DNA of 64,000 nucleotides from Eledone cirrhosa (Eukaryota), in the NCBI GenBank assembly GCA_964016885.1, contig OZ024755.1:33666001-33730000 (forward strand). The letters are read 5' to 3'. Numbering within the stretch: the stretch's first letter is position 1; each line of letters opens with the position of its first letter. Both the position numbers and the translations under genes were made by a program. This document shows positions 3,233-64,000 of the stretch, one piece after another. The notes below the pieces were generated by a model that had not been told where the DNA came from, did not search any database, and was given only the letters and a program-made list of their open reading frames with translations.

Positions 3233-3301
3233 ATTTTATTATGCGCATTTCAAAAACAAATATCATCATGCAATAACATTTGTGTTTTCATCAGATAAAA
3301 T
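3233..3301 (-). ncRNA. Type I hammerhead ribozyme inside a ~260-bp insert (3106-3368) between (TA)n tracts
   Basis: Minus strand: auuuuau CUGAUGA [acaaauguua/ugauauuugu stem II] GAA AUGCGCAU A auaaaau; 7-bp stem I, AUA site. Confidence 0.85.
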
Positions 3302-3437: not shown

Positions 3438-3928
3438 AGGGGAGAGGAAACAAACATATATACACTTGTGTATAAAAGTAGGTGCTGGAAATATACATAT
3501 AAGCATCTGAGAGGAAGTAGAGAAGTAATTTGCCAATTGAAATCTGTTTTGGTAACTATTCCATCGTATATCCTTACGGGGTCGATAAAATAAAGTACCA
3601 GTAATGCACTGGGTAATTGCTGGCCTTGTGCCTAAAGTAGAAACAATTATTACTTTTACATGGCAAATATATCTGATACTAAAACATAGAAATGCTTAAA
3701 TAGAGACTTATTCAAAACATCATTATGCTATTTCTCATAATCATAATTATCATCATCATCACCACAACTACTGCCGGCACTCCAACATCCACCAACACCA
3801 CCATTGGAATTAGAAGCAGCGCAGCACAACAACAGCGCTTTTGCACATATACACATGCAAGTAGGTTCACATACATGTATGAATGACTCTATGATTGTAT
3901 GGTCTATCTCTCTCTCTATATATATCTA

Positions 3929-4284
3929 TGGAGGCACATGGCTTAGTGGCTAGAGCATTGGCCTTGCAATCGAAAGGTTGTGAGTTCAATTCTCAGACCG
4001 GGTGATGTGTTGTTTCCTTGAGCAAGACACTTTATTTCACGTTACTCCAGTTTACTCAGCTGTAGAAATGAGATGATAGGGACTGGGGTCCCTATCATTC
4101 CACTGCAAAGTGGTCGTGGAGGTGCCAGAGCAAAAAAGCACCCAGCACTCACTGTAAATGAGGTTGGTGTTAGGAAGGGCATCCAGCTGTAGAAATCAAG
4201 CCAGAATCAGTTCCCGTCCCACCCTTGCATGCAGGGAATAGTGGACGTAAAATGAAATGATGATGATGATGATGATGATGATGA
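3929..4284 (+). mobile_element. SINE family A, full length (tRNA-derived head, RTE-A-derived tail)
   Basis: Box A tggcttagtgg, box B gttcaattc, ccttgagcaagacactt body; tail matches the LINE end at ~1660-1729; (GAT)n. Confidence 0.9.
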
Positions 4285-4406
4285 TAGGGCGGTGAATTGG
4301 CAGTATCGGTAGAGGGTCGGACGCCATGCTTTGACGCATAGAGTTATGGCCCTTGTCATTCTGAGTTCAAATCCTGCCGAGGTTAACTTTGCCTTTCATC
4401 CTTACA
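4285..4406 (+). mobile_element. SINE family B, 5' half
   Basis: agggcggtgaattggcagtatcggtag...gttcaaatcc...gcctttcatccttac. Confidence 0.85.
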
Positions 4407-4850
4407 GAGATAACAACTCTTAGTTTCCTTGATGTAAGGTCTGGTTCTTCCAAATCATCTTATGTGTGACTCCTTTCTCCATTAATTGCCAGGTTTATAC
4501 TGGTTCATTCCTGAAGGAGTGGATATGCGAGTGAAAACATTGTTTAAAATGATCTTGTTTGATACAAACGTATCTCTTGCTAACTTCAGAATTTTCTTTG
4601 ATGTTGTGTGTAATCTCAGCCTTATACAGAACGATTTGATATAACATTTCTGTTGGAGAGGGCAGTTCTCTTTAATCTTACAAAAGTAGCTTGGATTTAC
4701 ATCAGGTTTATTCTTTGCAGTAACTTTTGATCTCATAGATGGGCCAAATGAATAGGATATCTTGACAGAATTGTGATTGAATATTTTACTATATCTATAT
4801 TGTGGTGGGAAATGTCTATCTATTAAATCTAGAAACTTTTTAAGGGAAAA
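4400..4850 (-). pseudogene. Penelope-like element ORF remnant: RT C-terminal region, Cys linker and GIY-YIG endonuclease, frameshifted
   Basis: KFLDLIDRHFP...KIFNHNSVKISYS...CKIKENCPLQQKC; in shifted frames VLYKAEI...KRYVCI..DHFKQCFHSHIHSFRNE and RPYIKETKSCYLCK, the layout typical of Neptune-type PLEs. Confidence 0.8.
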
Positions 4851-6020
4851 GTTTAAATAATCCAATTTACCACACCCCTGAAAAATCCAATTTAAACGAT
4901 TAAAAAAACTAATTAAAAGTTTACAATTAAAAATATTCCAATTAAAAATAAACAACAATTAAAACAACAATTCTAAAAATCGAATTAAAAAATCCTTTTC
5001 TATAAAAAAATCCAATTATGAAAAGTCATAGATTCCAATTAAAAAATCAGATTGATTGATTTAATCAAATCAATAAAAAAAACAACATCCCATTAAAAAT
5101 CCCATTACAAATATAAAAAAAACAAATAAAAATCCCATTAAAAATAGGATTAATATATCCAACTAAAAAAGCAAACTTTAAAAAATCAAGTTTAAATGCA
5201 ATTAAAAATCCCAATTAAATAACCTATTTAAAAAACTAATTAAATCAACCAGATATAAAAACGAATCAAAATCAAATTAAAAAATATCCAATTAAAAATC
5301 CCATTGAAACAATAACAATTAAAATAATTCAAATTGACAAATCCCAATTAAAAAGATCAATTAAAAATATCCAATGAAAAAAATTTTAAATATCCAATTA
5401 ATAACTCAAAAAACTAAATTCAATTTTAAAATATCCAAATATAAAAATTCCAATTAAAAACAATCCAATAAAAACCTAATTAAAAAAAATCCAAATAAAA
5501 ACACCAAATTAAAAAAACAATTAAAATAGATTCCAATTATAAAAATCCTATTAAAAAATTAATTTTATTAATCGAATAAAAAATCCAAATAAAAATATCC
5601 ATTTGAAAAAAACTAAAAAAATTCCAATTAATAAATTCAATTTAAAATCAATTAAGAAATCCAATAAAAAGACTTAAAATATACCCAATTAAAAGGAATT
5701 AATATAACAAATTAAAAGAATCCAATTAGAAACTAAATTTTAAAACATCCAAATAAAAACATCCAATTGAAAAAATTCAATAAGCAAATCAAATTAAAAA
5801 CAATTAAAAAATTCAAATTTTAATAATCCAATAAAAAATTTTTTTAAATCATATAAAAATACAAAATTAATTTTCCAATAAAAATATAGAATTAAGAAAA
5901 GTAATTCTGAAAAAATCCAATTAAAAATCCAATTTAAAAAATCTAATTAAACAAATCCAATTAGAAACACTAATAAATTCAACAAAAACATACCAATTAC
6001 AAAAAAATCCAGTTAAAAAT
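4851..6020. repeat. Degenerate A-rich satellite with ~11-13-bp core AAAATCCAATT
   Basis: The motif recurs dozens of times with indels; almost no G on the + strand. Confidence 0.8.
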
Positions 6021-9848: not shown

Positions 9849-9911
9849 TGTCATATTCCAGGTGTGAAGACTGAATTATAGAAGACAGTATTCACACCTG
9901 GAATATGACAT
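9849..9911. repeat. Hairpin with ~25-bp arms next to a TA/CA tract
   Basis: tgtcatattccaggtgtgaagactg / cagtattcacacctggaatatgaca. Confidence 0.9.
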
Positions 9912-14438: not shown

Positions 14439-15306
14439 TTAACCCTTTAAAAACATTTAAACAGGTCATATCCGGCCAGAATTCCCTCACTTCTTTCTAT
14501 TCAAACCACCCGTAATTGGATGTTCATACTAATGTTAAGGTATTTTTCTCAAAAATATCAAAATCTCGTAGATTTGATATTATGTGAGATAATTATGTGT
14601 GGTAAAGCCTTTGCTTTGTAAATACAATAGTATATATAGAGTAATGTAATTGTTATATGAGATATTATGTGAGGTAAAGCATTTACTTTGTAAATACAAT
14701 AGTATATATAGAGTAATGTAATTGTTATATGAGATATTATGTGAGGTAAAGCATTTACTTTGTAAATACAATAGTATATATAGAGTAATGTAAATGTTAT
14801 GTGAGATATAATGTGAGGTAAAGCCTTTACCACAAAAATACAATAGTATATATAGAGTAATGTAAATGTTATGAGAGATATTATGAGGTAAAACCCTTAC
14901 CATGAAAATACAATAGTAAATATAGAATAATGTAAATGTTATGTGAGATATAATGTGAGGTAAAGCCTTTACCACAAAAATACAATAGTATATATAGAGT
15001 AATGTAAATGTTATGTGAAATATTGTGAGGTAAAGCCTTTACTGTGAAAATACAATAGTATATATAGAGTAATGTAAATGTTATGTGAGATATTATGTGA
15101 GGTAAAGCCTTTACCATGAAAATACAATAGTATATATAGAGTAATGAAAATGTTATGTAAGATATTATGTGAGGTAAAGCCTTAATGTGAAAATACAATA
15201 GTATATATAGAGTAATGTAAATGTTATGTGAGATATTATGTGAGGTAAAGCCTTTACTGTGAAAATATAATAGTATATATAGAGTAATGTAAATGTTAAA
15301 GGGTTA
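14439..15306 (-). mobile_element. piggyBac-type MITE containing 10 internal tandem copies of a 70-72-bp subterminal segment
   Basis: Both MITE ends are present; aatacaatagtatatatagagtaatgtaa-type unit at 14621, 14693, 14765, 14837, 14907, 14979, 15049, 15121, 15192, 15264. Confidence 0.9.
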
Positions 15307-16929: not shown

Positions 16930-19782
16930 GGCAAGAACATCTTTGAAAATAGGTTTGTTAGATCGGAGCTAACATGGGGCTAAATAACAACATATACATG
17001 CTACTTAAGCTTAGTAAAAACATTTATATGCCCTAAAGGGTGGAATTTGACATGTGTTTGGAACCTACATTTTCTTTCTCCTCTTAAGTGTTGTAGTAAG
17101 TTTTCTAGGTACTGGCTTTTGCTATTAAATATAATGAGTTTGTGTAAGCATGTATTAATATGTATGAAGCAAGGTAGAATTATGATTAAAGTTATTCTAG
17201 TCTTTCTTATTGTGCTATGTTTTGAGACAAAATATATCTAGAACTACATTATGTAATGTTTCTTTCCTTTTATAAGCTGGTACGCTTTGATCGTCTAATA
17301 TTGAAATAATGTTTCTTCAAATCACTTTAATCTTGGAACATTATCCAGGATTTAAAGAATCATTATTTCAAAACAGGACGTGCTATTACTAGCTGTCTCT
17401 TTGAAAGTAAAGGAAAACGATTTAAAGAAACATTATTTAAATACTGGACATAGTATTATTTTTTCCTTTGAAAATAGAGAAAAATAATTTGAAGAGACTT
17501 CATTGCAATATTGGATGTACCATTATTCAGGAACTGAAGAAATATTATCTTAAAACTGAGAGAATACCTTGATGTCTGGCAGTAGCATCCTTAGGGATAA
17601 ATGGGTACACTGGTTTTCACTTGATTCTTAATTCTAGGTTCAGAATATTTTTCAACCATACTCCAAGAACTGCTAAACTTAGTGAGGGACAGGTTACTTG
17701 GATATGCACTGTCAAGTATTTCTAAGGCCCCATGATGGACACACAGTTTAGAGTGGCACCCCGATCACTCACTGCACCATTTACAGGAAGTAGTTTAATT
17801 GAAGGTTTGATCGGGGTATATAAGACAAGGGTTTAGTTGGTATGTCAGTCTGAAGTGCAGAGAGTTTAAAAAAGGTCCATGAATATTTCATTCCCCATTC
17901 TCTCTCTCAAACATAAAGGAAGTCTCTCAGCCCCTTTCAATTGTGAGAGGAAACATCTCTTCCTGAGCACTGAAAGAAGACTTGTTCCACCTTGCAAAAT
18001 TTCTTTTCAAGGCCCTAAATTTAATTTCAAGGAAATTTGACTATTAATTCTATGAGATCAAGTGATTATGTAGGGACTCCCTCATTATTTTATGTATATT
18101 TTATGATTCTACTTGCCAATAATGAATTCTCAAGATCATAAATGATTGAAGGAGGTTCAAATGTAAGATGTTGAATTCTGTTATTCATTTACGTTTTTCC
18201 CTCATAAGACTGTAGCTATGTTGTAGCCCTGCCTTCATTGACATTAAGTCAATTATATTAACCACAGTATTTCATCCCCCAGTACTTCACCTGTTACCCA
18301 TTGATTTCTATTTATTGTATGTCTATGTTTACCTGAGTCACGATGTCCTCTTACAGAATTAAATTCACCAATTTATATCAATATGAGCACAAAACACACA
18401 CACATACACACTCACTCACACACATGCACACACAAAAGTACACTTGTTTTTTTTTTGGGGGGGGGGGGGAGAGTTTTTTCAATAGGGAAAGAAAACAATT
18501 AGTTTCTATTTATGGTATGGCTATGATCACCTGAGTCATGTCCCCTTACAGAATTAGTGCGCTTTTACAAAATTAAATTCATCAAATTTATATCAATATG
18601 AACACAAACACACACACATTCACACAAAAGTACACTTTCTTGGGCTCTTTTCAATAGGGAAAGAGAACTTAATATGTAAAGCAGAGTCTTCATTACAATC
18701 CTCATATTAGTGACACACCATCCTGGCACAAATCCAAACTGTATCTCATTTAATCTAATTCTATTCCTAATCTGTCAGGCTAAAACTATTTCTGTTATTT
18801 TCATCACATGATCCATTAGTTTGATGCCTCTGTAATTGCTCTTTTCTAGAATATCACCTATTCCATTGCAGCAATTAGTGATTATCATACTGTGCCAGTC
18901 ATTTGGTATGACACCAACATGTATTACCTGGTTGACTATGTAAGGCACTAGCTCAAGACTTTCTTCATTGGATATTTTCTAAGGGCCTGATGACTTTCCC
19001 CCTTTTCATATCCTTAATGACTTCTTTGATGTTATTACTATCAAACCTGAGAGTTGGTCCCTCTAATACAGTAGTTCCCAAAGTGGGTTCCACAGAACCC
19101 AAGAGTTGTGCAAATGAAGTGTCTGAGGTTCCATGAAAAAAGGTAGAGGAGTATATTTATGTTATATATACAAGTACATGACAGGCCTCCATATAGCCTC
19201 TGTCTACCAAACATGATCTATAAAATGAAGCCTATACCTGCTCATGATGCCATACATTATGATGACTGAATCCCAAACCATGTAACTACAAAGGAAACTC
19301 CTCAACTACTCCGGTCAGAATCTATTGAAAAATAAAATCTATTATCCCCAGTTTCATGAGAAACATAAAGTCATTGTAAAGACATTTCTCTGTTGGAATT
19401 TGATCAAACACTCTAGCTTAGCATCTGTTAAATTCTGCTTCGCTTTGTGTACTTACCTATTGTATTAAGAGAGATAGCTTCATAATGGAGTGAAATCTGG
19501 TACAGCTAGAATGCTAAAGACCAGCATGCATTAAAATAACAAAAATACCTTCAAGGTATCCTTATCATATTTATGTCATGTTCCTCAAAATTCTACTATG
19601 GCTAATTCTTCTTTTCTGTTTAGAAAAATGTTTTTAAAAAATTATCAAAAGAGATTTTATGAAGAAGGATTGGAAATTATTACTAATAAATTATTCAAGG
19701 TTTTATACCCCCTGCCATAAAATTGCACTAAACTCACACAAGAGCCTAACCATATGTAACATACGCGCACACACACATACAT

Positions 19783-27384: not shown

Positions 27385-28605
27385 AATCATCATCATTTTA
27401 CGCCCGCTTTTCCCTGCTTGCAAGGGTGGGACGAGTCCTATTCAATACAGCATCTCTCCATTCATCACGGTCCTTCATCATCTCCTCCATGAGCTTCAGC
27501 AATCCGAGGTCAGCTCTCACTACCCCCGCCCATGTTTTTCATGTTCTTCCACTACTGCATCTTCCTTCTACTGGGATTTCTTAGCACTTCTTTACCCAGC
27601 AGTCATCCTCCATATGCATCACATGTCCATACCATCGCAGTCTTCTCTCCTGCACACTACACTTTATCCCTCTTATACACAGTTTCACCCTCACGACCTC
27701 TGCCCATGTTTTGTGTGGTTTACTCTACTGCGTCTTCCTTCTACTGGGATTTCTTGGCACTTCTTTACCCAGCGGTCATCCTCCATGTGCATCACATGTC
27801 CATACCATCGCAGTCTTTTCTCCTGCACACTACACTTTATCCCTCTTATACACAGTTTCACCCTCACGACCTCTGCCCATGTTTTGTGTGGTTTACTCTA
27901 CTGCGTCTTCCTTCTACTGGGATTTCTTGGCACTTCTTTACCCAGCGGTCATCCTCCATGTGCATCACATGTCCATACCATCGCAGTCTTCTCTCCTGCA
28001 CACTACACTTTATCCCTCTTATACACAGTTTCACCCTCACGACCTCTGCCCATGTTTTGTGTGGTTTACTCTACTGCGTCTTCCTTCTACTGGGATTTCT
28101 TGGCACTTCTTTACCCAGCGGTCATCCTCCATGTGCATCACATGTCCATACCATCGCAGTCTTCTCTCCTGCACACTACACTTTATCCCTCTTATACACA
28201 GTTTCACCCTCACGACCTCTGCCCATGTTTTGTGTGGTTTACTCTACTGCGTCTTCCTTCTACTGGGATTTCTTGGCACTTCTTTACCCAGCGGTCATCC
28301 TCCATGTGCATCACATGTCCATACCATCGCAGTCTTCTCTCCTGCACACTACACTTTATCCCTCTTATACACAGTTTCACCCTCACGACCTCTGCCCATG
28401 TTTTGTGTGGTTTACTCTACTGCGTCTTCCTTCTACTGGGATTTCTTGGCACTTCTTTACCCAGCGGTCATCCTCCACGTGCATCACATGTCCATACCAT
28501 CGCAGTCTTCTCTCCTGCACACTGCAGCTTATCCCTCTTATACAGTTTCTCTCTCTACTCGTCTATATACTTGGTCGTTCACGTACATTGACATTGCACT
28601 TGCTC
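27385..28605 (-). mobile_element. RTE LINE family A 3' end with an internal 173-bp segment amplified ~6x
   Basis: Homologous to 1360-1729; actttatccc at 27661, 27834, 28007, 28180, 28353. Confidence 0.9.
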
Positions 28606-29855: not shown

Positions 29856-31036
29856 ATGTAGAGACTTCTTACATCCCAAATAACCATGTAGAGACTTCTT
29901 ACATCCCAAATAACCATGTAGAGACTTCTTACATCCCGAATAACCATGTAGAGACTTCTTACTTCCCGAATAACCATGTAGAGACTTCTTACTTCCCGAA
30001 TAACCATGTAGAGACTTCTTACATCCCGAATAACCATGTAGAGACTTCTTACATCCCGAATAACCATGTAGAGACTTCTTACTTCCCGAATAATCATGTA
30101 GAGACTTCTTACATCCCAAATAACCATGTAGAGACTTCTTACATCCCGAATAACCATGTAGAGACTTCTTACATCCCGAATAACCATGTAGAGACTTCTT
30201 ACATCCCGAATAACCATGTAGAGACTTCTTACATCCCGAATAACCATGTAGAGACTTCTTACATCCCGAATAACCATGTAGAGACTTCTTACATCCCGAA
30301 TAACCATGTAGAGACTTCTTACATCCCGAATAACCATGTAGAGACTTCTTACATCCCGAATAACCATGTAGAGACTTCTTACATCCCGAATAACCATGTA
30401 GAGACTTCTTACATCCCGAATAACCATGTAGAGACTTCTTACATCCCGAATAACCATGTAGAGACTTCTTACATCCCGAATAACCATGTAGAGACTTCTT
30501 ACTTCCCGAATAACCATGTAGAGACTTCTTACATCCCGAATAACCATGTAGAGACTTCTTACATCTCGAATAACCATGTAGAGACTTCTTACATCCCGAA
30601 TAACCATGTAGAGACTTCTTACATCCCGAATAACCATGTAGAGACTTCTTACATCCCGAATAACCATGTAGAGACTTCTTACATCCCGAATAACCATGTA
30701 GAGACTTCTTACATCCCGAATAACCATGTAGAGACTTCTTACATCCCGAATAACCATGTAGAGACTTCTTACGTCCCGAATAACTATGTAGAGACTTCTT
30801 ACGTCCCGAATAACTATGTAGAGACTTCTTACTTCCCAAATAACCATGTAGAGACTTCTTACATCCCGAATAACCATGTAGAGACTTCTTACATCCCAAA
30901 TAACCATGTAGAGACTTCTTACATCCCGAATAACCATGTAGAGACTTCTTACATCCCGAATAACCATGTAGAGACTTCTTACATCCCAAATAACCATGTA
31001 GAGATTTCTTACATCCCGAATAACCATGTAGAGACT
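29856..31036. repeat. 30-bp minisatellite, ~39 near-identical copies
   Basis: catgtagagacttcttacatcccgaataac with sparse point variants and no spacers. Confidence 0.98.
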
Positions 31037-39931: not shown

Positions 39932-40534
39932 TTTAAGTGAGTTGGGGGAAATCTGTAGCAGAGAACAAATGTTAATGATAATTATTGTGTACAGTGCTCA
40001 GGTGCACTACAACTCATCAAAGGTGCATGGATAGTACATAGAGTAATGTAGTAGGCAGCATGATGTGGCTAAGATCGTCTACAGATTGGAGTTATCAGGA
40101 AATTAAGGGGCAGAGAGCATGCAGAGTGTCATGGGAGTGTCATATAAAAAAAGGGTTGCAGCAAAGGGGAAGAAGAGCCTTATCCTTATTCTTCCTCCAA
40201 AGTAGATCTTAAAATTAAGTTGAGTATGATAGTTTGAGTGTGAAATGTTAACTAACTTGAAAAACAAACTGAAAGAAAACTGAGTGAATGGCTGAAAAGT
40301 AAAGATCTCAGTAGTTAATGTAAAAGATGACTGCCCTAAGTATTGGGAATGGAAGATTAGTAGCAGATGAAAGGTAAATCTTGCTGACGGTGGAAGATAT
40401 CTGTAACAGACTAATACCAAAATACATATGGTAAACTATGATGAGGATCATGATGATGATGAACTCTAGAGGGAAAGTATCATAATAAACAAAATCACTG
40501 GACAGCATATGCTTGAATAAATTAATCTAGATAA

Positions 40535-40877
40535 TGGAGGCACATGGCTTAGTGGTTAGAGCATTGTCCTTGCAATCGAAAGGTTGTGAGTTAAATTCTC
40601 AGACCGGGTGATGTGTTGTTTCCTTGAGCAAGACACTTTATTTCACATTGCTCCAGTTTACTCAGCTGTAGAAATGAGATGATAGGGACTGGGGTCCATA
40701 TCATTCCACTGTAAATTGGTCGTGGAGGTGCCACGGTAAAAAGCACCTAGCCCTCACTGTAAATGAGGTTGGTGTTAGGAAGGGCATCCAGCTGTAGAAA
40801 TCAAGCCAGAATCAGTTCCCGTCCCACCCTTGCAAGCAGGGAAAAAGCGGATGTAAAATGATGATGATGATGATGAT
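40535..40877 (+). mobile_element. SINE family A, full length
   Basis: Colinear with 3929-4284. Confidence 0.9.
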
Positions 40878-42057: not shown

Positions 42058-42486
42058 ATATCTCACAAAATATCAAATCTATGAGATTTTGATATTATTT
42101 ATTTTGAGAACAATACCTTAACATCAGTACGAGCAGTGAGTTGGGGCCAGTTTGAACAGAAAGAAGTGAAAGAATTCTGGCTGGATATGGCCAGTTTAAA
42201 CATGGATGGGTGTCATTATAAATGTCTGGCTCGTTTGCTAATAAATGTCTCTATGTATTGTTAATATTATATAGAATATGCTACAAGCAATACTCTATGT
42301 GTTAGCATTGATGCCAAAATTGTTATAAGTTAGAAGCTTATTTATATATTCTTAGATAAATAGGTATATCTTTTTATTATTGAGAAAATGCAGGCCAGTG
42401 CTGTTGACCTTTACAGACCCTACTAGATATATAAGGCAGATGCATTTGATGTTCAATAGGAACTTTACTCATCTAGGTTGAAGTTG

Positions 42487-43078
42487 TTAGAATGTCTTAG
42501 GAAAGAATCACTGGAGAGTCACTCCAGGTAGAGCCACTACTTCTCTGAATTGAGAGATCACAGCTCTGATACTATGGGCATGTGGTTAGAATGTCTTAGG
42601 AATCACTGGTGAGTCACTCCAGGTAGAGCTACTACTTCTCTGAATTGAGAGATCATAACTCCAATACTATGGTAATGTGGTTAGAATGTCTTAGGAAAGA
42701 ATCCCTGGAGAGTCACTCGAAGTAGAGCTACTACTTCTCTGAATTGAGAGATCACAGCCCGGATATTATGGGCATGTGGTTAGAATGTCTCAGGAAAGAA
42801 TCACTGGAGAGTCACTCCAGGTAGAGCCACTACTTCTCTGAATTGAGAGATCACAGCTCTGGTGCTATGGGCATGTGGTTAGAATGTCTTAGGAATCACT
42901 GGTGAGTCACTCCAAGTAGAGCTGCTACTTCTCTGAATTGAGAGATCACAGTTCTGATACTATGGACATGTGGTTAGAATGTCTCAGGAAAGAATCACTG
43001 GAGAACCACTCCAAGTAGAGCTGCTACTTCTCTGAATTGAAAGATCAGAACTCTGATATTATGGGCAGTTGGTTAGAA
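42487..43078. repeat. 95/99-bp minisatellite x6 with a 293-bp higher-order unit
   Basis: ttagaa at 42487, 42586, 42681, 42780, 42879, 42974, 43073; spacings 99-95-99-99-95-99. Confidence 0.92.
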
Positions 43079-43880: not shown

Positions 43881-43893
43881 ACACTCAACTCTC

Positions 43894-44046
43894 TAACCCT
43901 TTAGCATTTAAACTGGTTGTATCCAGCCAGAATTCTCTCACCTTGTTCTGTTCAAATCAGTATGAGTGGCTGGTTACAGCCAGTTTGATCAGAAAGAGGC
44001 AAGAGAATTCTGGCCAGATATGGCTGGTTTAAATGCTAAAGAGTTA
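43894..44046. mobile_element. Rearranged MITE made of two right ends in inverted orientation
   Basis: ccctttagcatttaaactgg..ccagaattctct / gagaattctggccagatatggctggtttaaatgctaaagag. Confidence 0.75.
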
Positions 44047-44265
44047 GGACAGATCTTTAGTACCTCGAGGTAGGAGTATGTAGGTTTGCAAACTTCAGGC
44101 TTATGTGGACATTTGAGCTACTAAAAATAACAATGAAACATTTCCTACCACCTTAAAAGAAGTGTACAGTGGATAATGCTGTTCTAGATATCCAGAACGT
44201 TAGGATGGTCACAGATGGTGTTACTTCCAGCTATAAATCTTCTCAATCAGGACTGATCTATACTA

Positions 44266-45415: not shown

Positions 45416-45757
45416 TCATCATCATCATTTCATTTTACGTCCGCTTTTTCCCTGCTTACAAGGGTGGGACGGGAACTGATTCTGGCTTGATTTCTACAGT
45501 GGGGTGCCCTTCCTAACACCAACCTCATTTACAGTGAGTGCTGGGTGCTTTTTTGCCGTGACACCTCCACGACCACTTTGCAGTGGAATGATAGGGACGC
45601 CAGTCCCTATCATCTCATTTCTACAGCTGAGTAAACTGGAGCAATGTGAAATAAAGTGTCTTGCTCAAGGAAACAACACATCACCCGGTCTGTGAATTGA
45701 ACTCACAACCTTTCGATTGCAAGGCCAATGCTCTAACCACTAAGCCATGTGCCTCCA
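45416..45757 (-). mobile_element. SINE family A, full length
   Basis: Reverse complement of the family A consensus. Confidence 0.9.
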
Positions 45758-45849
45758 TTATCTAGATTAATTTATTCAAGCATATGCTGTCCAGTGATTT
45801 TGTTTATTATGATACTTTCCCTCTAGAGTTCATCATCATCATCATCATC

Positions 45850-46200
45850 CTCATCATAGTTTAATGTCCATTTTCCACACTAGCATGGGTAGGATGGGCA
45901 GTCCTTCTGTGGGAGATCAGGTAGGAGGACCGTGTTTCACTCACACAGAACTGATTTTGGTTTGGTTTCTACAGCTAGATGCCCTTCCTAATGCCAACCA
46001 AATTTACAGTGTATGCTGGGTGCTTTTTGTGATGACACCTACACGACCACTTTACAGTGCGGGCAGTTTATATCACAACACCACAATGACCACTTTACAG
46101 TGTGCACAGGGCGCTTTTTGTTGTGAAACCTACACAACCACTTTACAGAGTGGACTGTGCACTTTTTGTCGTGACACTTACACAACCACTTTACAATGTT
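45850..46200 (-). mobile_element. Tail-B element with repeated accactttacag units
   Basis: tgtccattttccacactagcatggg...gatgcccttcctaatgccaacc. Confidence 0.75.
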
Positions 46201-47024: not shown

Positions 47025-47332
47025 TTTATTAACCACAAGGGTTTACACAAAATGAGACATTAAGGACAGTACAGAACAATACAGGACAGTACAATGGGCA
47101 TTTCTGTGTGTAAAATAAAACAAAAACAGAGGATGTAACAAAAAAGAACAATGAAAAATTCCCCAATAGGGGGGAAACTTCTGAGGGCCATCGCGGAGAA
47201 AGCCCATTAAAAAAAACCACGGTGACCCTGACCACCAGGGCAAGTGCCCTCTCCCAGTTTTCCACCTTCAATTTACAGGCGCATACTCAGGGTAGGCCCA
47301 TTCACTCGGGCCATTCTTGCCTCTCTCACCCA
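47025..47332 (-). mobile_element. Probable Tx1-type LINE 3' end; UTR pieces also at 51830-51980
   Basis: WVREARMARVNGPTLSMRL* followed by a T-rich UTR ending in aataaa; clade assignment is from recall. Confidence 0.55.
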
Positions 47333-47679
47333 TCATCATCATCATCATAATTTCCTTTTACGTCCGCTTTTCCCTGCTTGCAAGGGTGGGACGGGAACTG
47401 ATTCTGGCTTGATTTCTACAGCTGGATGCCCTTCCTAACACCAACCTCATTTACAGTGAGTGCTGGGTGTTTTTTTGCCGTGGCACCTCCACGACCACTT
47501 TGCAGTGGAATGATAGGGACCCCAGTCCCTGTGATCTCATTTCTACAGCTGAGTAAACTGGAGCAATGTGAAATAAAGTGTCTTGCTCAAGGAAACAACA
47601 CATCACCCAGTCTGAGAATTGAACTCACAACCTTTCGATTGCAAGGCCAATGTTCTAACCACTAAGCCATGTGCCTCCA
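47331..47679 (-). mobile_element. SINE family A, full length
   Basis: Reverse complement of the family A consensus. Confidence 0.9.
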
Positions 47680-47704
47680 TCTTTCAACAAAATGCTGATA
47701 ATAA

Positions 47705-48227: not shown

Positions 48228-48731
48228 TAATAATAATGGTAATAATAATGAAAATTATTGAGTACAGTGCTCAGGTGCACTACAACTCATCAAAGGTACA
48301 TGCATAGTAGATAGAATAATGTACAAATGTCAGGGAAGTAAACAGTGTATGAGTCATGATACACATACAGATACATGTGTGTGTGTATGGAGGGGGAATA
48401 TCAGGTGTAGTGTTGGCAGTAAGATGTAAACTATAATGGTACTAGTATAATATTATTCTATAATTATTCACTATTGTAAAGTGTTATTAGATTGACATTA
48501 AAATACATTAAATTGTAAGAAACAGCAGCGTATCCTATAAAAAGAATTGTAGTACTTATTTCCATCCTGTTAGATTCTTACATCAAATTCCATTCTGTTA
48601 TCCCTCATAAGTTGATAACACACACACACACACACACATATATATGTAGAGGTTATATTTAATTTGTTGGGATACAACAAGCAAAATATTTTTATAACTG
48701 ATATAAAGCATTCAACAAATTATTGGAGTAA

Positions 48732-48991
48732 ATATACAATATATTAACAAATGGAAATTATATTTATAAAACCATATTTATTTCATTATACATATTTCAA
48801 GGGCCACCAGAGAAAACTATGGTGCGCTTTCATCAGATAAAATATAATATAGGTTAGTTTTATAAATAAATATTGGCATACCCTTAAAAAATGCAACCAT
48901 TCTGGTTGGAATCTCCAGAATCTCCAGGTCCTTGAAATATGTATAATGAAATAAATATGGTTTTATAAATATAGTTTCCATTTGTTAATAT

Positions 48992-52335: not shown

Positions 52336-52336
52336 A

Positions 52337-53485
52337 TAATTGTTTCTACTTTTGGCACAAGGCCAGCAATTATCTCAGTGCATTACTGGTACTTTATTTT
52401 ATAGACCCCCGTAATAATTGTTTCTACTTTTGGCACAAGGCCAGCAATTATCCCAGTGCATTACTGGTACTTTATTTTATAGACCCCCGTAATAATTGTT
52501 TCTACTTTTGGCAAAAGGCCAGCAATTATCCCAGTGCATTACTGGTACTTTATTTTATAGACCCCCGTAATAATTGTTTCTACTTTTGGCACAAGGCCAG
52601 CAATTATCCCAGTGCATTACTGGTACTTTATTTTATAGACCCCGTAATAATTGTTTCTACTTTTGGCACAAGGCCAGCAATTAACTCAGTGCATTACTGG
52701 TACTTTATTTTATAGACCCCGTAATAATTGTTTCTACTTTTGGCACAAGGCCAGCAATTATCTCAGTGCATTACTGGTACTTTATTTTATAGACCCCCGT
52801 AATAATTGTTTCTACTTTTGGCACAAGGCCAGCAATTATCCCAGTGCATTACTGGTACTTTATTTTATAGACCCCGTAATAATTGTTTCTACTTTTGGCA
52901 CAAGGCCAGCAATTATCCCAGTGCATTACTGGTACTTTATTTTATAGACCCCCGTAATAATTGTTTCTACTTTTGGCACAAGGCCAGCAATTATCCCAGT
53001 GCATTACTGGTACTTTATTTTATAGACCCCCGTAATAATTGTTTCTACTTTTGGCACAAGGCCAGCAATTATCCCAGTGCATTACTGGTACTTTATTTTA
53101 TAGACACCATAAGGATAAAAGCCAAAGTTGACTTTGGCGGGATTCCTATATAATAGTTTCTGATTTAGGCACAAGATCATCAATTTTAGAGGAGCAGAAG
53201 CGGATTAAATTGACTTGGTATCTATAGAATTGTTTCTACCTTTGGCACAAGGCCACCAATTATCCCAGTGTATTACTGGTACTTTATTTTATAGACCCCC
53301 GTAATAATTGTTTCTACCTTTGGCACAAGGCCAGCAATTATCTCAGTACATTACTGGTACTTTATTTTATCAACCCTATAAGGATGAAAGGCTAAACTAA
53401 CCTGTGCGGGATTTGATCTCAGAACGTAAAGGGCCATAACTCTATGCTACAAAGCATGGCGCCCGACACTCTACCAGTACTGCCA
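52337..53485 (-). repeat. Satellite of the SINE B 3' 77-78 bp (10 tandem copies, plus 2 more at 53228-53485)
   Basis: aataattgtttctacttttggcacaaggccagcaattatcccagtgcattactggtactttattttatagaccccc repeated. Confidence 0.95.
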
Positions 53486-56207: not shown

Positions 56208-56210
<3 letters not shown>

Positions 56211-56544
56211 GCACATGTCTTAGTGGTTAGAGCATTGGCTTTGCAATCGAAAGGTTGTGAGTTCAATTCTCAGAGCGGGTGATGTGTTGTTTCCTTGAGC
56301 AAGACACTTTATTTCACATTGCTCCAGTTTACTCAGCTGTAGAAATGAGATGCTAGGGACTGGGGTCCCTATCATTCCACAACAAAGTGGTCGTGGAGGT
56401 GCCATGGCAAAAAAGCACCCAGCACTCACTGTAAATGAGGTTGGTGTTAGGAAGGGCATCCAGCTGTAGAAATCAAGCCAGCATCAGTTCCCGTCCCACC
56501 CTTGCAAGCAGGGAAAAAGTGGACGTAAAATGAAATGATGAATG

Positions 56545-56545
<1 letters not shown>
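56208..56545 (+). mobile_element. SINE family A, full length, between (TA)n tracts
   Basis: Family A consensus. Confidence 0.9.
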
Positions 56546-56622
<77 letters not shown>

Positions 56623-56626
<4 letters not shown>

Positions 56627-56741
56627 GGAAAAGGTATGACCCCGACGGCAGAGCTCAAGCCGTTTCGACGGCTATTTCTAGTCCAGAAATAGCCGTCGAA
56701 ACAGCTTGAGCTCTGCCGTCGGGGTCATACCTTTTCCTATT
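56623..56741. repeat. Near-perfect palindrome, ~57-bp arms, 5-nt loop
   Basis: aataggaaaaggtatgacc...gctatttct agtcc agaaatagc...ggtcataccttttcctatt; one mismatch. Confidence 0.95.
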
Positions 56742-57208
56742 ACCCACTCTACTACCCCAAGTATCAAATACTCTGGTGCGTTATGGTCCATCTGGTTCCT
56801 TACCACAATTCCTTAGTTATATATAGAGAGAGATTTTGAGTATATGTTGGTTGTTTACCGATACTTCAGTATGCAGACTGGAGCACTCGACGAAGTATGC
56901 AGGTTGGTTTGTTTACTCTGGAGTAAATTCCAGTTCCTCAGAGGAATAACAACACAACCAGGAACTGGACATATCGATGGATTGACGGAGTAAAACACAC
57001 CTCAACAACATGTGTAGCTGTCTCTCCCACACCAATTCGGACTGCATGAAGAGGTCACAGCCAATGATGGCTGTCACTGAAATATATATAGCAGTATATC
57101 TATAATTAATAATAAATGAACCCAAATTTTACATATTTGACTTAATTATTTCATATATATATATATATATATAAATAAAATAACAGGAGGGTGGACTGGT
57201 GTAAATCC

Positions 57209-57284
57209 TCGAAAGGTTTATTATACTATGATCATTTCAATGACAGGGTTCCATATGAATCCGGTGATATCATCAGGTATTCGA
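57209..57284 (-). ncRNA. Hammerhead ribozyme, mirror copy in left arm
   Basis: tcatcag at 57270-57276, atgatcat-ttc at 57228-57238. Confidence 0.72.
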
Positions 57285-57429
57285 AATATAACAAAGGAAT
57301 ATGTAAAAACCATGGGTCCGAAAAATCAGAGACAGAGAGGACGACTGACCAACTGTAAAAGTTGGTCAGTCGTCCTCTCTGTCTCTGATTTTTCGGACCC
57401 ATGGTTTTTACATATTCCTTTGTTATATT

Positions 57430-57505
57430 TCGAATACCTGATGATATCACCGGATTCATATGGAACCCGGTCATTGAAATGATCATAGTATAATAAAACT
57501 TTCGA
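57430..57505 (+). ncRNA. Type I hammerhead ribozyme in right arm
   Basis: ucgaauac CUGAUGA [accgg...ccggu] GAA AUGAUCAU A guau-(bulge)-ucga; AUA site at 57487. Confidence 0.78.
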
Positions 57506-57685
57506 GGATTTACACCAGTCCAGCCTCCTGTTATTTTATTTATAATCAACTCCGTATTCGCACCACCAACTACACAAACGAAGACGGGTGAGCTGCACTA
57601 CGTTGAGTACTCTCCACAATATTACACCAAGATTGACCATACGGAATGACCAATTCTATCTAGTGGTGAACCAACAAACCTAAAG

Positions 57686-57716
<31 letters not shown>

Positions 57717-57977
57717 AGTTCTATTTAAATTGTTGGGATACAACAAGCAAATATTTTTATAACTGATATAAAGCACTCAAATATTTGGAGTAAAAATACA
57801 TATATATATATATATATACACACACACATATATATATATGTGTATATATATATATATATATTAATAAAAGAAATTCCAACTTTGTCTGATTTACTCGTTT
57901 TATTTACAATCCTTTAAAATTATAATGATATTATAATGAAATAGTATGGTAGAATATTAAATGTTAAGTGTTAATTT

Positions 57978-58013
57978 AACAAGTACTTTCATGCTTTCGC
58001 AATCTTCAGGTTC
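57978..58013 (-). ncRNA. Minimal hammerhead, mirror copy
   Basis: Reverse complement of 58071-58106. Confidence 0.55.
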
Positions 58014-58070
58014 ATATTCAGTGGTGACAGTCAGTTGAAAATTGCAAACTTGACTGTCACCACTGAATAT

Positions 58071-58106
58071 GAACCTGAAGATTGCGAAAGCATGAAAGTA
58101 CTTGTT
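58071..58106 (+). ncRNA. Minimal hammerhead ribozyme candidate
   Basis: aac CUGAAGA u-ugc-GAAA-gca-u GAA AGUACU U guu; 6-nt palindromic stem III, CUU site, only 3-bp stem I. Confidence 0.55.
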
Positions 58107-58494
58107 AAATTAACACTTAACATTTAATATTCTACCATACTATTTCATTCGAATACCATTATAAATTTTAAAGGATTGTAAATAAAACGAGTAAATCAGA
58201 CAAAGTTGGAATTTCTTTTATTAATATAATCTTCTATACACAATCATACACACCCGTGTATATATATGTGTTAAGTATTTCTGTAGAAAAGGTAAAGGAA
58301 AGAAGAGTGCTCTATGTGTAGTACAGAGCTATTCTATTACATAATAGTAGATATCATTTAAAAAATTTATATCCAAAACATAATTGTTTTGTCTGACAAA
58401 TGAGCTAGATGTTTCTGCATAAATTATCTAGTTTCTCGATACCTTTGGCAATGAAATAATTATATTGTGTTGTTAAACAAAAAATATATACACG

Positions 58495-63937: not shown

Positions 63938-64000
63938 TATAGCAATCGACTGTGATTACATATTTATGGATGTCATATGTAATCACAGTCGATTGCTATA
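63938..64000. repeat. Perfect hairpin with 26-bp arms, reaching the window edge
   Basis: tatagcaatcgactgtgattacatat-(11 nt)-atatgtaatcacagtcgattgctata. Confidence 0.92.

Follow-up and report, generated by a model that had tools for sequence, protein, structure and literature searches.

The fold-back element described here, set between two (TA)n tracts in a 64,000-nucleotide stretch of the Eledone cirrhosa genome (contig OZ024755.1, positions 33,666,001 to 33,730,000, hereafter the window), is probably a truncated, non-coding insertion of a Penelope-like element (PLE) that arose in one event and whose two hammerhead ribozymes are predicted to be silent. A PLE origin as such is very likely: the element carries a hammerhead in a terminal repeat, an inverted, 5'-truncated head-to-head copy and a tail at one end. 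The first-pass annotation, which was made from the letters of the sequence, had proposed a PLE-type fold-back insertion, and this is supported by the match to the published PLE layout, by reads from the repeat family and by a precedent for self-priming. The anatomy of the element, the high copy number of its family and the variants common to both arms can be read directly.

Anatomy of the fold-back and its neighbours

The palindrome is 375 bp long and consists of two arms of 185 nt each (57170-57354 and 57360-57544), which are 98% complementary, lie 5 nt apart and mismatch at three positions (57245/57469, 57216/57498 and 57191/57523). The earlier description (374 bp, arms of about 183 bp around a 5-nt loop, few mismatches, an unpaired tail of about 140 bp, flanking TA tracts) agrees closely with these values and with those listed below, and its statement that the same hammerhead stands on both strands is borne out by a type I core in each arm, the left copy having one stem II pair broken. 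The element and the repeats adjoining it comprise the following features.

56623..56815, plus strand: neighbour A, a fold-back with arms of 57 nt, a loop of 5 nt and a tail of 74 nt
56826..57152, plus strand: neighbour B, a repeat with a hammerhead at 57041-57095
57153..57173: left (TA)n tract, the final 4 bases of which double as the first 4 of the left arm
57170..57354, minus strand: left arm, an inverted copy of the unit's first 185 nt (an inverted, 3'-shortened pLTR-like segment)
57223..57280, minus strand: type I minimal hammerhead, left copy (core 57276-57270, predicted cut 57227)
57355..57359: turning-point loop, 5 nt
57360..57544, plus strand: right arm, the unit's sense strand
57434..57491, plus strand: type I minimal hammerhead, right copy, from structural descriptor and folding (stem I 57434-37/57488-91, CUGAUGA 57438-44, stem II 57445-75, GAAA 57476-79, stem III 57479-86)
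57545..57686, plus strand: one-sided tail, 142 nt, unpaired, A+C 62%, a member of the arms' repeat family
57687..57711: right (TA)n tract
57712..57795, minus strand: neighbour D, the 3' end of the hammerhead-48836 family (87% over 87 columns to 48646-48732)
57858..58256, plus strand: neighbour E, a head-to-head fold-back with arms of about 175 nt, a 17-nt spacer and a 29-nt tail

The arms are arranged head-to-head, such that the sense hammerhead of the right arm lies on the plus strand and that of the left arm on the minus strand. The right arm is probably a 5'-truncated pLTR. As the tail lies outside them, the inverted repeats of the element are not terminal. There is no tandem array at the locus and no second direct copy of the unit within the 64-kb window; the six frames of the focal copy hold no recognisable PLE protein, and a 121-aa frame on the minus strand (57232-57597) had no Pfam match. 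TA tracts flank the insertion on both sides, and a target duplication is not readable inside them. The 4-base overlap of the left tract with the left arm is a possible microhomology join.

Together with its neighbours the element makes up a row of five repeat fragments linked via TA or GA tracts. Within 600 bp there are two further fold-backs built in the same way, which makes three in 1.7 kb; those nearby (neighbours A and E) belong to unrelated families, yet resemble the focal element in polarity, in their short spacers and in having a tail on one side only. Neighbour A represents a very high-copy family, with thousands of reads passing from its 3' end into (TA)n, and the structural descriptor found no complete hammerhead core in it. 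In neighbour E, 170 bp away, the dual-strand hammerhead design recurs, with CUGAAGA-type cores at 58075 (plus strand) and 58009 (minus strand) in a sequence unrelated to the focal family. The hammerhead of neighbour B has an A at position C3 in the copy within the window and a C in nearly all family reads. One piece of neighbour B (56835-56926) runs opposite to its orientation in the family and stands head-to-head before the body, and other family reads switch strand at 56927; this layout could reflect twin priming, or a palindrome that has lost part of one arm.

The window as a whole is animal-like, with 27-45% GC in most 2-kb bins, dense microsatellites and dispersed repeats, and the repeats have an octopus-like look. 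A dispersed family of about 350 bp (56208-56546, 45416-45863, 47331-47680, 40432-40876 and 3928-4277; 93-96% alike) has a 5' part that by eye looks tRNA-derived and SINE-like. Other self-symmetric inverted repeats, 70-88% alike, are located at 2131-2345, 9849-9910, 17301-17371, 43893-44047 and 63938-64000. Tandem arrays with units of 30-173 bp occupy 27516-28544, 29856-31036, 52336-53105, 14580-15298 and 42486-43078, and several of them are apparently assembled from pieces of dispersed repeats.

PLE coding sequence is also present in the window, at a distance from the fold-back. A decayed frame on the minus strand (4392-4841) gave 579 library matches in a full HMMER search, and 145-148 of the 150 retrieved proteins mapped back to it by tblastn; a word-index protein search and the Atlas returned 0 matches for this frame. 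Inspection of long matches by eye (three of the four inspected were long enough) revealed RT-like motifs, a CxC...CPL Cys-rich linker and a C-terminal nuclease region, and a GIY-YIG domain was weakly matched in one of 12 proteins scanned (21.7 bits against a Pfam cut-off of 22.6). We take the frame to be of the Neptune type, a clade label based in part on the linker description in PMC8557442. The wider decayed PLE-type region (4080-4958, minus strand) covers thumb/linker and the start of the nuclease, and is broken downstream by the copy of the 350-bp repeat at 3928-4277. A hammerhead of the same design occurs at 3294 (minus strand), 1.1 kb downstream of the frame, with other repeats between. 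A single tblastn match within the fold-back cluster (E 0.006, one row from 150 queries) was judged to be due to chance.

Hammerhead motifs and their predicted fate in a transcript

Both arms possess the hallmarks of a PLE minimal type I hammerhead, namely the core CUGAUGA...GAAA...UH, helices I and II and a palindromic helix III; a match to an Rfam model and the canonical G10.1-C11.1 pair are lacking. In the right copy, where a U.U stands at the base of stem II instead of that pair, the predicted cut follows 57487 (site AUA) and the proximal part of stem I has 4 bp. An alternative register with an extra base before 10.1 yields no better stem. In the left copy, the change at 57245 breaks a G-C pair of stem II, most family reads having the pairing base; stem II scores 4 pairs there, against 7 in the right copy. 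Stem III is the palindromic AUGAUCAU, of 2 bp, with a self-duplex of -7.2 kcal/mol.

Rfam gave 0 matches at gathering level over the whole window. Among 56 loose matches in 56600-58300 none was to a hammerhead family; the top ones were to miRNA hairpin models, all below gathering scores, and we rejected a miRNA identity, as these matches mirror the hairpin shape. A structural descriptor detected 8 cores at 6 separate loci in the 64-kb window, whereas 50 block shuffles averaged 0.08 and never exceeded 1; having been written after the focal element was seen, it is circular for that element though not for the other loci.

Seven hammerhead loci in the window (3294 and 48836 on the minus strand; 23210, 49147, 57046, 57438 and 58075 on the plus strand) were compared at the base of stem II. 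A G-C pair at 10.1-11.1 is found at none of the seven, and a U at 11.1 at six. This U11.1 variant, together with the density of fold-backs, is the lead that goes beyond the ordinary, and the variant may already be covered by the supplementary alignments of PMC4209133 or by the work of Lunse et al. on variant hammerheads from PLEs. In stem II, the motifs at 57438, 57046 and 48836 apparently have in common a C.C mismatch at the fourth position.

Folding predicts an arm-arm duplex of -325 kcal/mol and a fold of -349 kcal/mol for read-through RNA. Even with the other arm absent, a fold constrained to contain the hammerhead is predicted to lie above the local minimum, by 10.9 kcal/mol (right) and 13.6 kcal/mol (left). 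Given the head-to-head arrangement, transcription from either side makes the antisense arm before the sense arm, and one transcript of the locus offers no second sense copy of the hammerhead. In Schistosoma, a single minimal hammerhead of a PLE showed no cleavage in vitro and dimers had low activity (PMC4209133). Since the antisense arm is made first and a minimal hammerhead needs a partner on the same strand, neither hammerhead should cut, and the focal ribozymes are predicted to be inactive in read-through RNA. The earlier suggestion that transcription from either direction meets a ribozyme is thus not sustained as a function, given the order of the arms, the disfavoured hammerhead fold and the inert single hammerhead of Schistosoma, while the proposed masking of the ribozyme by pairing of the arms agrees with the predicted duplex.

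Read-through RNA would form a 185-bp hairpin that conceals both cores, and, as the first-pass annotation suggested, it would plausibly be open to ADAR or Dicer; such processing is already on record for Penelope repeats (PMC3681739, PMC5625713). Among nine differences between the focal copy and the family majority there was no editing signature (one sense A>G, four T>C in the unpaired tail, four other). Palindromic repeats are edited in a frog, and octopus has a high potential for dsRNA (PMC5625713). A bacterial promoter scan, whose model is unsuited to animal DNA, remained at chance level (3 vs 4.1).

Family reads and the origin of the palindrome

Public short reads bear on the family to which the element belongs. 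Nineteen runs were listed, none of them recorded as RNA; three, from one sample, hold a 0.42 share of the words, and four (X1, X4, X5 and X17) were mapped to 56760-57790 (1031 bp) at 80% likeness, and the small-share runs X6-X16 were left out. In X1, 10,169 contigs fell on the 1031-bp stretch, which contains several families, and coverage extended over the two arms and the tail in every one of the four runs. The X1 depth, a contig depth and not a copy number, peaks over the hammerhead and drops about 40-fold toward the centre, a profile that fits the expectation for 5'-truncated retrocopies. The arm is deeper than the tail in X1 and about equal to it in X17. Scans of metagenomes for patterns of the family gave 0 and 0 matches.

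Among 15 joints listed, at least four are internal to the element. The centre joint (57354>57360), of the form expected where a contig crosses this turn, is represented by two X1 contigs with a depth of 25.9 and 49 letters on the short side, the intervening letters not being displayed; it is missing from the rows listed for X4, X5 and X17, and X1 is possibly the source sample. Of the others, 57275>57439 is an exact mirror turn, and 57290>57410 and 57302>57512 are offset turns; each of these three has a single contig behind it, the shorter side of which spans 22-25 letters at 80% likeness. Several joints are as expected of copies that turn at differing truncation points, and together with the depth profile they mark a dispersed high-copy family with variable 5' truncation.

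The family majority base differs from the focal copy in both X1 and X17 at no fewer than 9 of the 328 sites of 57360-57687 (12 variant rows listed). Both arms carry the same family-minority base at the mirror sites 57210/57504 and 57253/57461, whereas the non-family base is on the left arm at 57245 and on the right arm at 57498. Judged from these bases, the pattern fits one template copied into two arms that then mutated separately. The first-pass annotation had called the insertion young. In favour of this, the arms diverge by only 0.8% per arm (3/185; 95% interval 0.17-2.4%), but the copy is at least 2.7% away from the family majority, against 1.6% between the arms, and palindrome arms can be homogenised, so that youth is only partly upheld.

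From the geometry alone we infer a snap-back step, and propose the following sequence of events. A PLE reverse transcriptase/GIY-YIG endonuclease would nick the TA tract, with target-primed reverse transcription beginning at the AC-rich 3' end (57686) and halting after about 327 nt. The cDNA end would then snap back via the 5-nt loop and be extended on itself by 185 nt to the TTTATA end, which would anneal to the opposite side of the TA target by microhomology; finally, repair or replication would turn the hairpin into a palindrome. On this view the second hammerhead would be a by-product of copying rather than a selected device. Several points count against this reading: no coding sequence is tied to the focal family, the GIY-YIG match among homologues of the distant frame is weak and other repeats separate that frame from its hammerhead, Rfam hammerhead models are unmatched, the G10.1-C11.1 pair is absent, the tail exceeds the usual 30-40 nt, and the centre joint was seen in X1 only.

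An alternative that shares the PLE origin is a head-to-head join of two separate cDNAs, primed on opposite strands of the target and begun at different start sites on the RNA, one of them including the tail. In Anolis, the PLE protein, a predicted dimer, can nick and extend both strands and uses two internal starts that bound the tail (PMC11167929), and in neighbour B a tail piece is inverted relative to the body without duplication. Independent cDNAs, however, should end at different points, whereas the focal element turns symmetrically with a 5-nt loop, as does neighbour A. A pile-up of read ends at 57544 was considered as a second start site for reverse transcription and rejected, as the common C>T of the family at 57547 creates AATT at 57544; the other pile-ups (56810, 57107 and 57034) also fall at AATT, and such ends appear to be RAD restriction ends, the enzyme being deduced from this motif. 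Restriction sites best account for the pile-up, which gives no indication of a second start site. We consider joining of two cDNAs possible but doubtful, and rank snap-back above it; the two estimates overlap through the common PLE origin.

It is quite unlikely that a solo pLTR was inserted and later duplicated by a template switch during host replication or repair, with gene conversion keeping the arms alike. Such a history would also account for the arms having diverged less from one another than from the family majority, but three fold-backs of the same polarity occur in 1.7 kb, all ending within the element, and no host flank is included in the arms.

A fold-back artefact of assembly or library preparation, which the first-pass annotation had named as the outcome that would overturn its reading, was weighed against the same reads. 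A single run, which may be the source sample, shows the centre joint, and none of the listed pieces reaches across the entire stretch. Against this, the arms differ at three sites, at two of which the non-family base sits on different arms, and the polarity and tail agree with known biology; as public short-read contigs cross the turning point found in the assembly and others turn elsewhere, we regard an artefact as extremely unlikely.

Equally hard to credit is a MITE or fold-back DNA transposon that carries a hammerhead by chance: the element is short, non-coding and high-copy with long inverted repeats and TA flanks, yet its tail lies outside the inverted repeats, family contigs turn at different points and the depth drops steeply toward the centre. 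A hairpin RNA locus retained by the host (a source of endo-siRNA or an editing decoy), or a selected two-way ribozyme terminator, could draw on the stable predicted read-through fold, on siRNAs that match inverted parts of rearranged Penelope copies in Drosophila (PMC3681739) and on the heavy editing of Penelope in a lizard, where it is the one other massively edited LINE-class repeat (PMC5625713), but it has next to no likelihood, as transcription and conservation at the focal locus are without evidence, the locus is part of a cluster of five repeat fragments in decay, a stem II pair is broken in one arm and the predicted folding does not favour the hammerhead.

Significance and comparison with known systems

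As a single locus, the element preferred here as a PLE snap-back insertion is a clean example of a known insertion form and matters little: inverted copies set head-to-head, tails on one side, insertion at TA targets and hammerhead pairs on opposite strands have all been published for PLEs. Its wider use lies in the family, where the turning points and loops of individual copies, and the variants that their arms share, could discriminate between snap-back and two-primer integration of PLEs, a mechanism stated to be still open (PMC8557442, PMC3846280). In a repeat-rich animal genome, hairpins of this kind are also candidate substrates for ADAR or Dicer. A more far-reaching conjecture, which we think rather unlikely, is that frequent snap-back by many PLE families with N10.1.U11.1 hammerheads is a main source of near-perfect dsRNA genome-wide, each fold-back silencing itself and masking its ribozymes; if true, PLE fold-backs could underlie much of the extreme A-to-I hyper-editing of repeats in an octopus host. 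A literature search for octopus, hammerhead and Penelope found no paper.

The individual traits have clear precedents. An inverted segment at the terminus, to which the first-pass annotation had pointed as a PLE habit, is indeed described as typical, an inverted 5'-truncated copy adjoining the 5' end and a tail of 30-40 bp often being present at one end only; a bias for insertion into (TA)n is stated for Naiads (PMC8557442). Palindromic head-to-head junctions have been read as self-priming, and PLEs favour simple AT-rich targets (PMC3846280). In vitro work reports nicking of AT-rich DNA on both strands and reverse transcription that begins within an AC-rich element delimiting the tail, and found hammerhead cleavage dispensable for PLE insertion (PMC11167929). 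Pairs of minimal hammerheads on opposite strands, 100-700 bp apart, were reported in 2014, with a highly conserved G10.1-C11.1 pair (PMC4209133).

The palindromic Harbinger repeats of Xenopus, which are ADAR substrates (PMC5625713), resemble the focal element in being self-folding over a few hundred nucleotides with a short loop. They are, however, DNA transposons with a fixed palindromic consensus, whereas the focal palindrome is apparently copy-specific and editing is only a candidate process here. The fixed-length terminal inverted repeats of a MITE are likewise absent.

Non-LTR retrozymes (PMC7229834; bioRxiv 10.64898/2026.07.22.740005) share with the focal element a non-coding unit of about 300 nt, a type I hammerhead and derivation from a PLE pLTR. 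They form head-to-tail tandems, dimers that cleave and circles, in contrast to the head-to-head focal copy with one sense ribozyme per strand; head-to-tail units are not found at the locus.

Compared with the minimal hammerheads of metazoan PLEs (Cervera and de la Pena 2014, PMC4209133), the focal motifs have the same core, long helix II, 4-bp helix I and short palindromic helix III, and form an opposite-strand pair about 160 bp apart; they differ in the U.U that replaces G10.1-C11.1.

The closest relatives in layout are the endonuclease-bearing (EN+) PLEs, which have inverted pLTRs and a tail (Craig et al. 2021, PMC8557442; Arkhipova et al. 2013, PMC3846280). The focal copy differs from them in having neither an ORF nor a second direct pLTR, and in its tail of 142 nt rather than 30-40 nt. 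It has in common with them the head-to-head inverted, truncated 5' copy, the palindromic junction, the extension at one end, the probable AT-rich or (TA)n target and the clustering in repeat-rich DNA.
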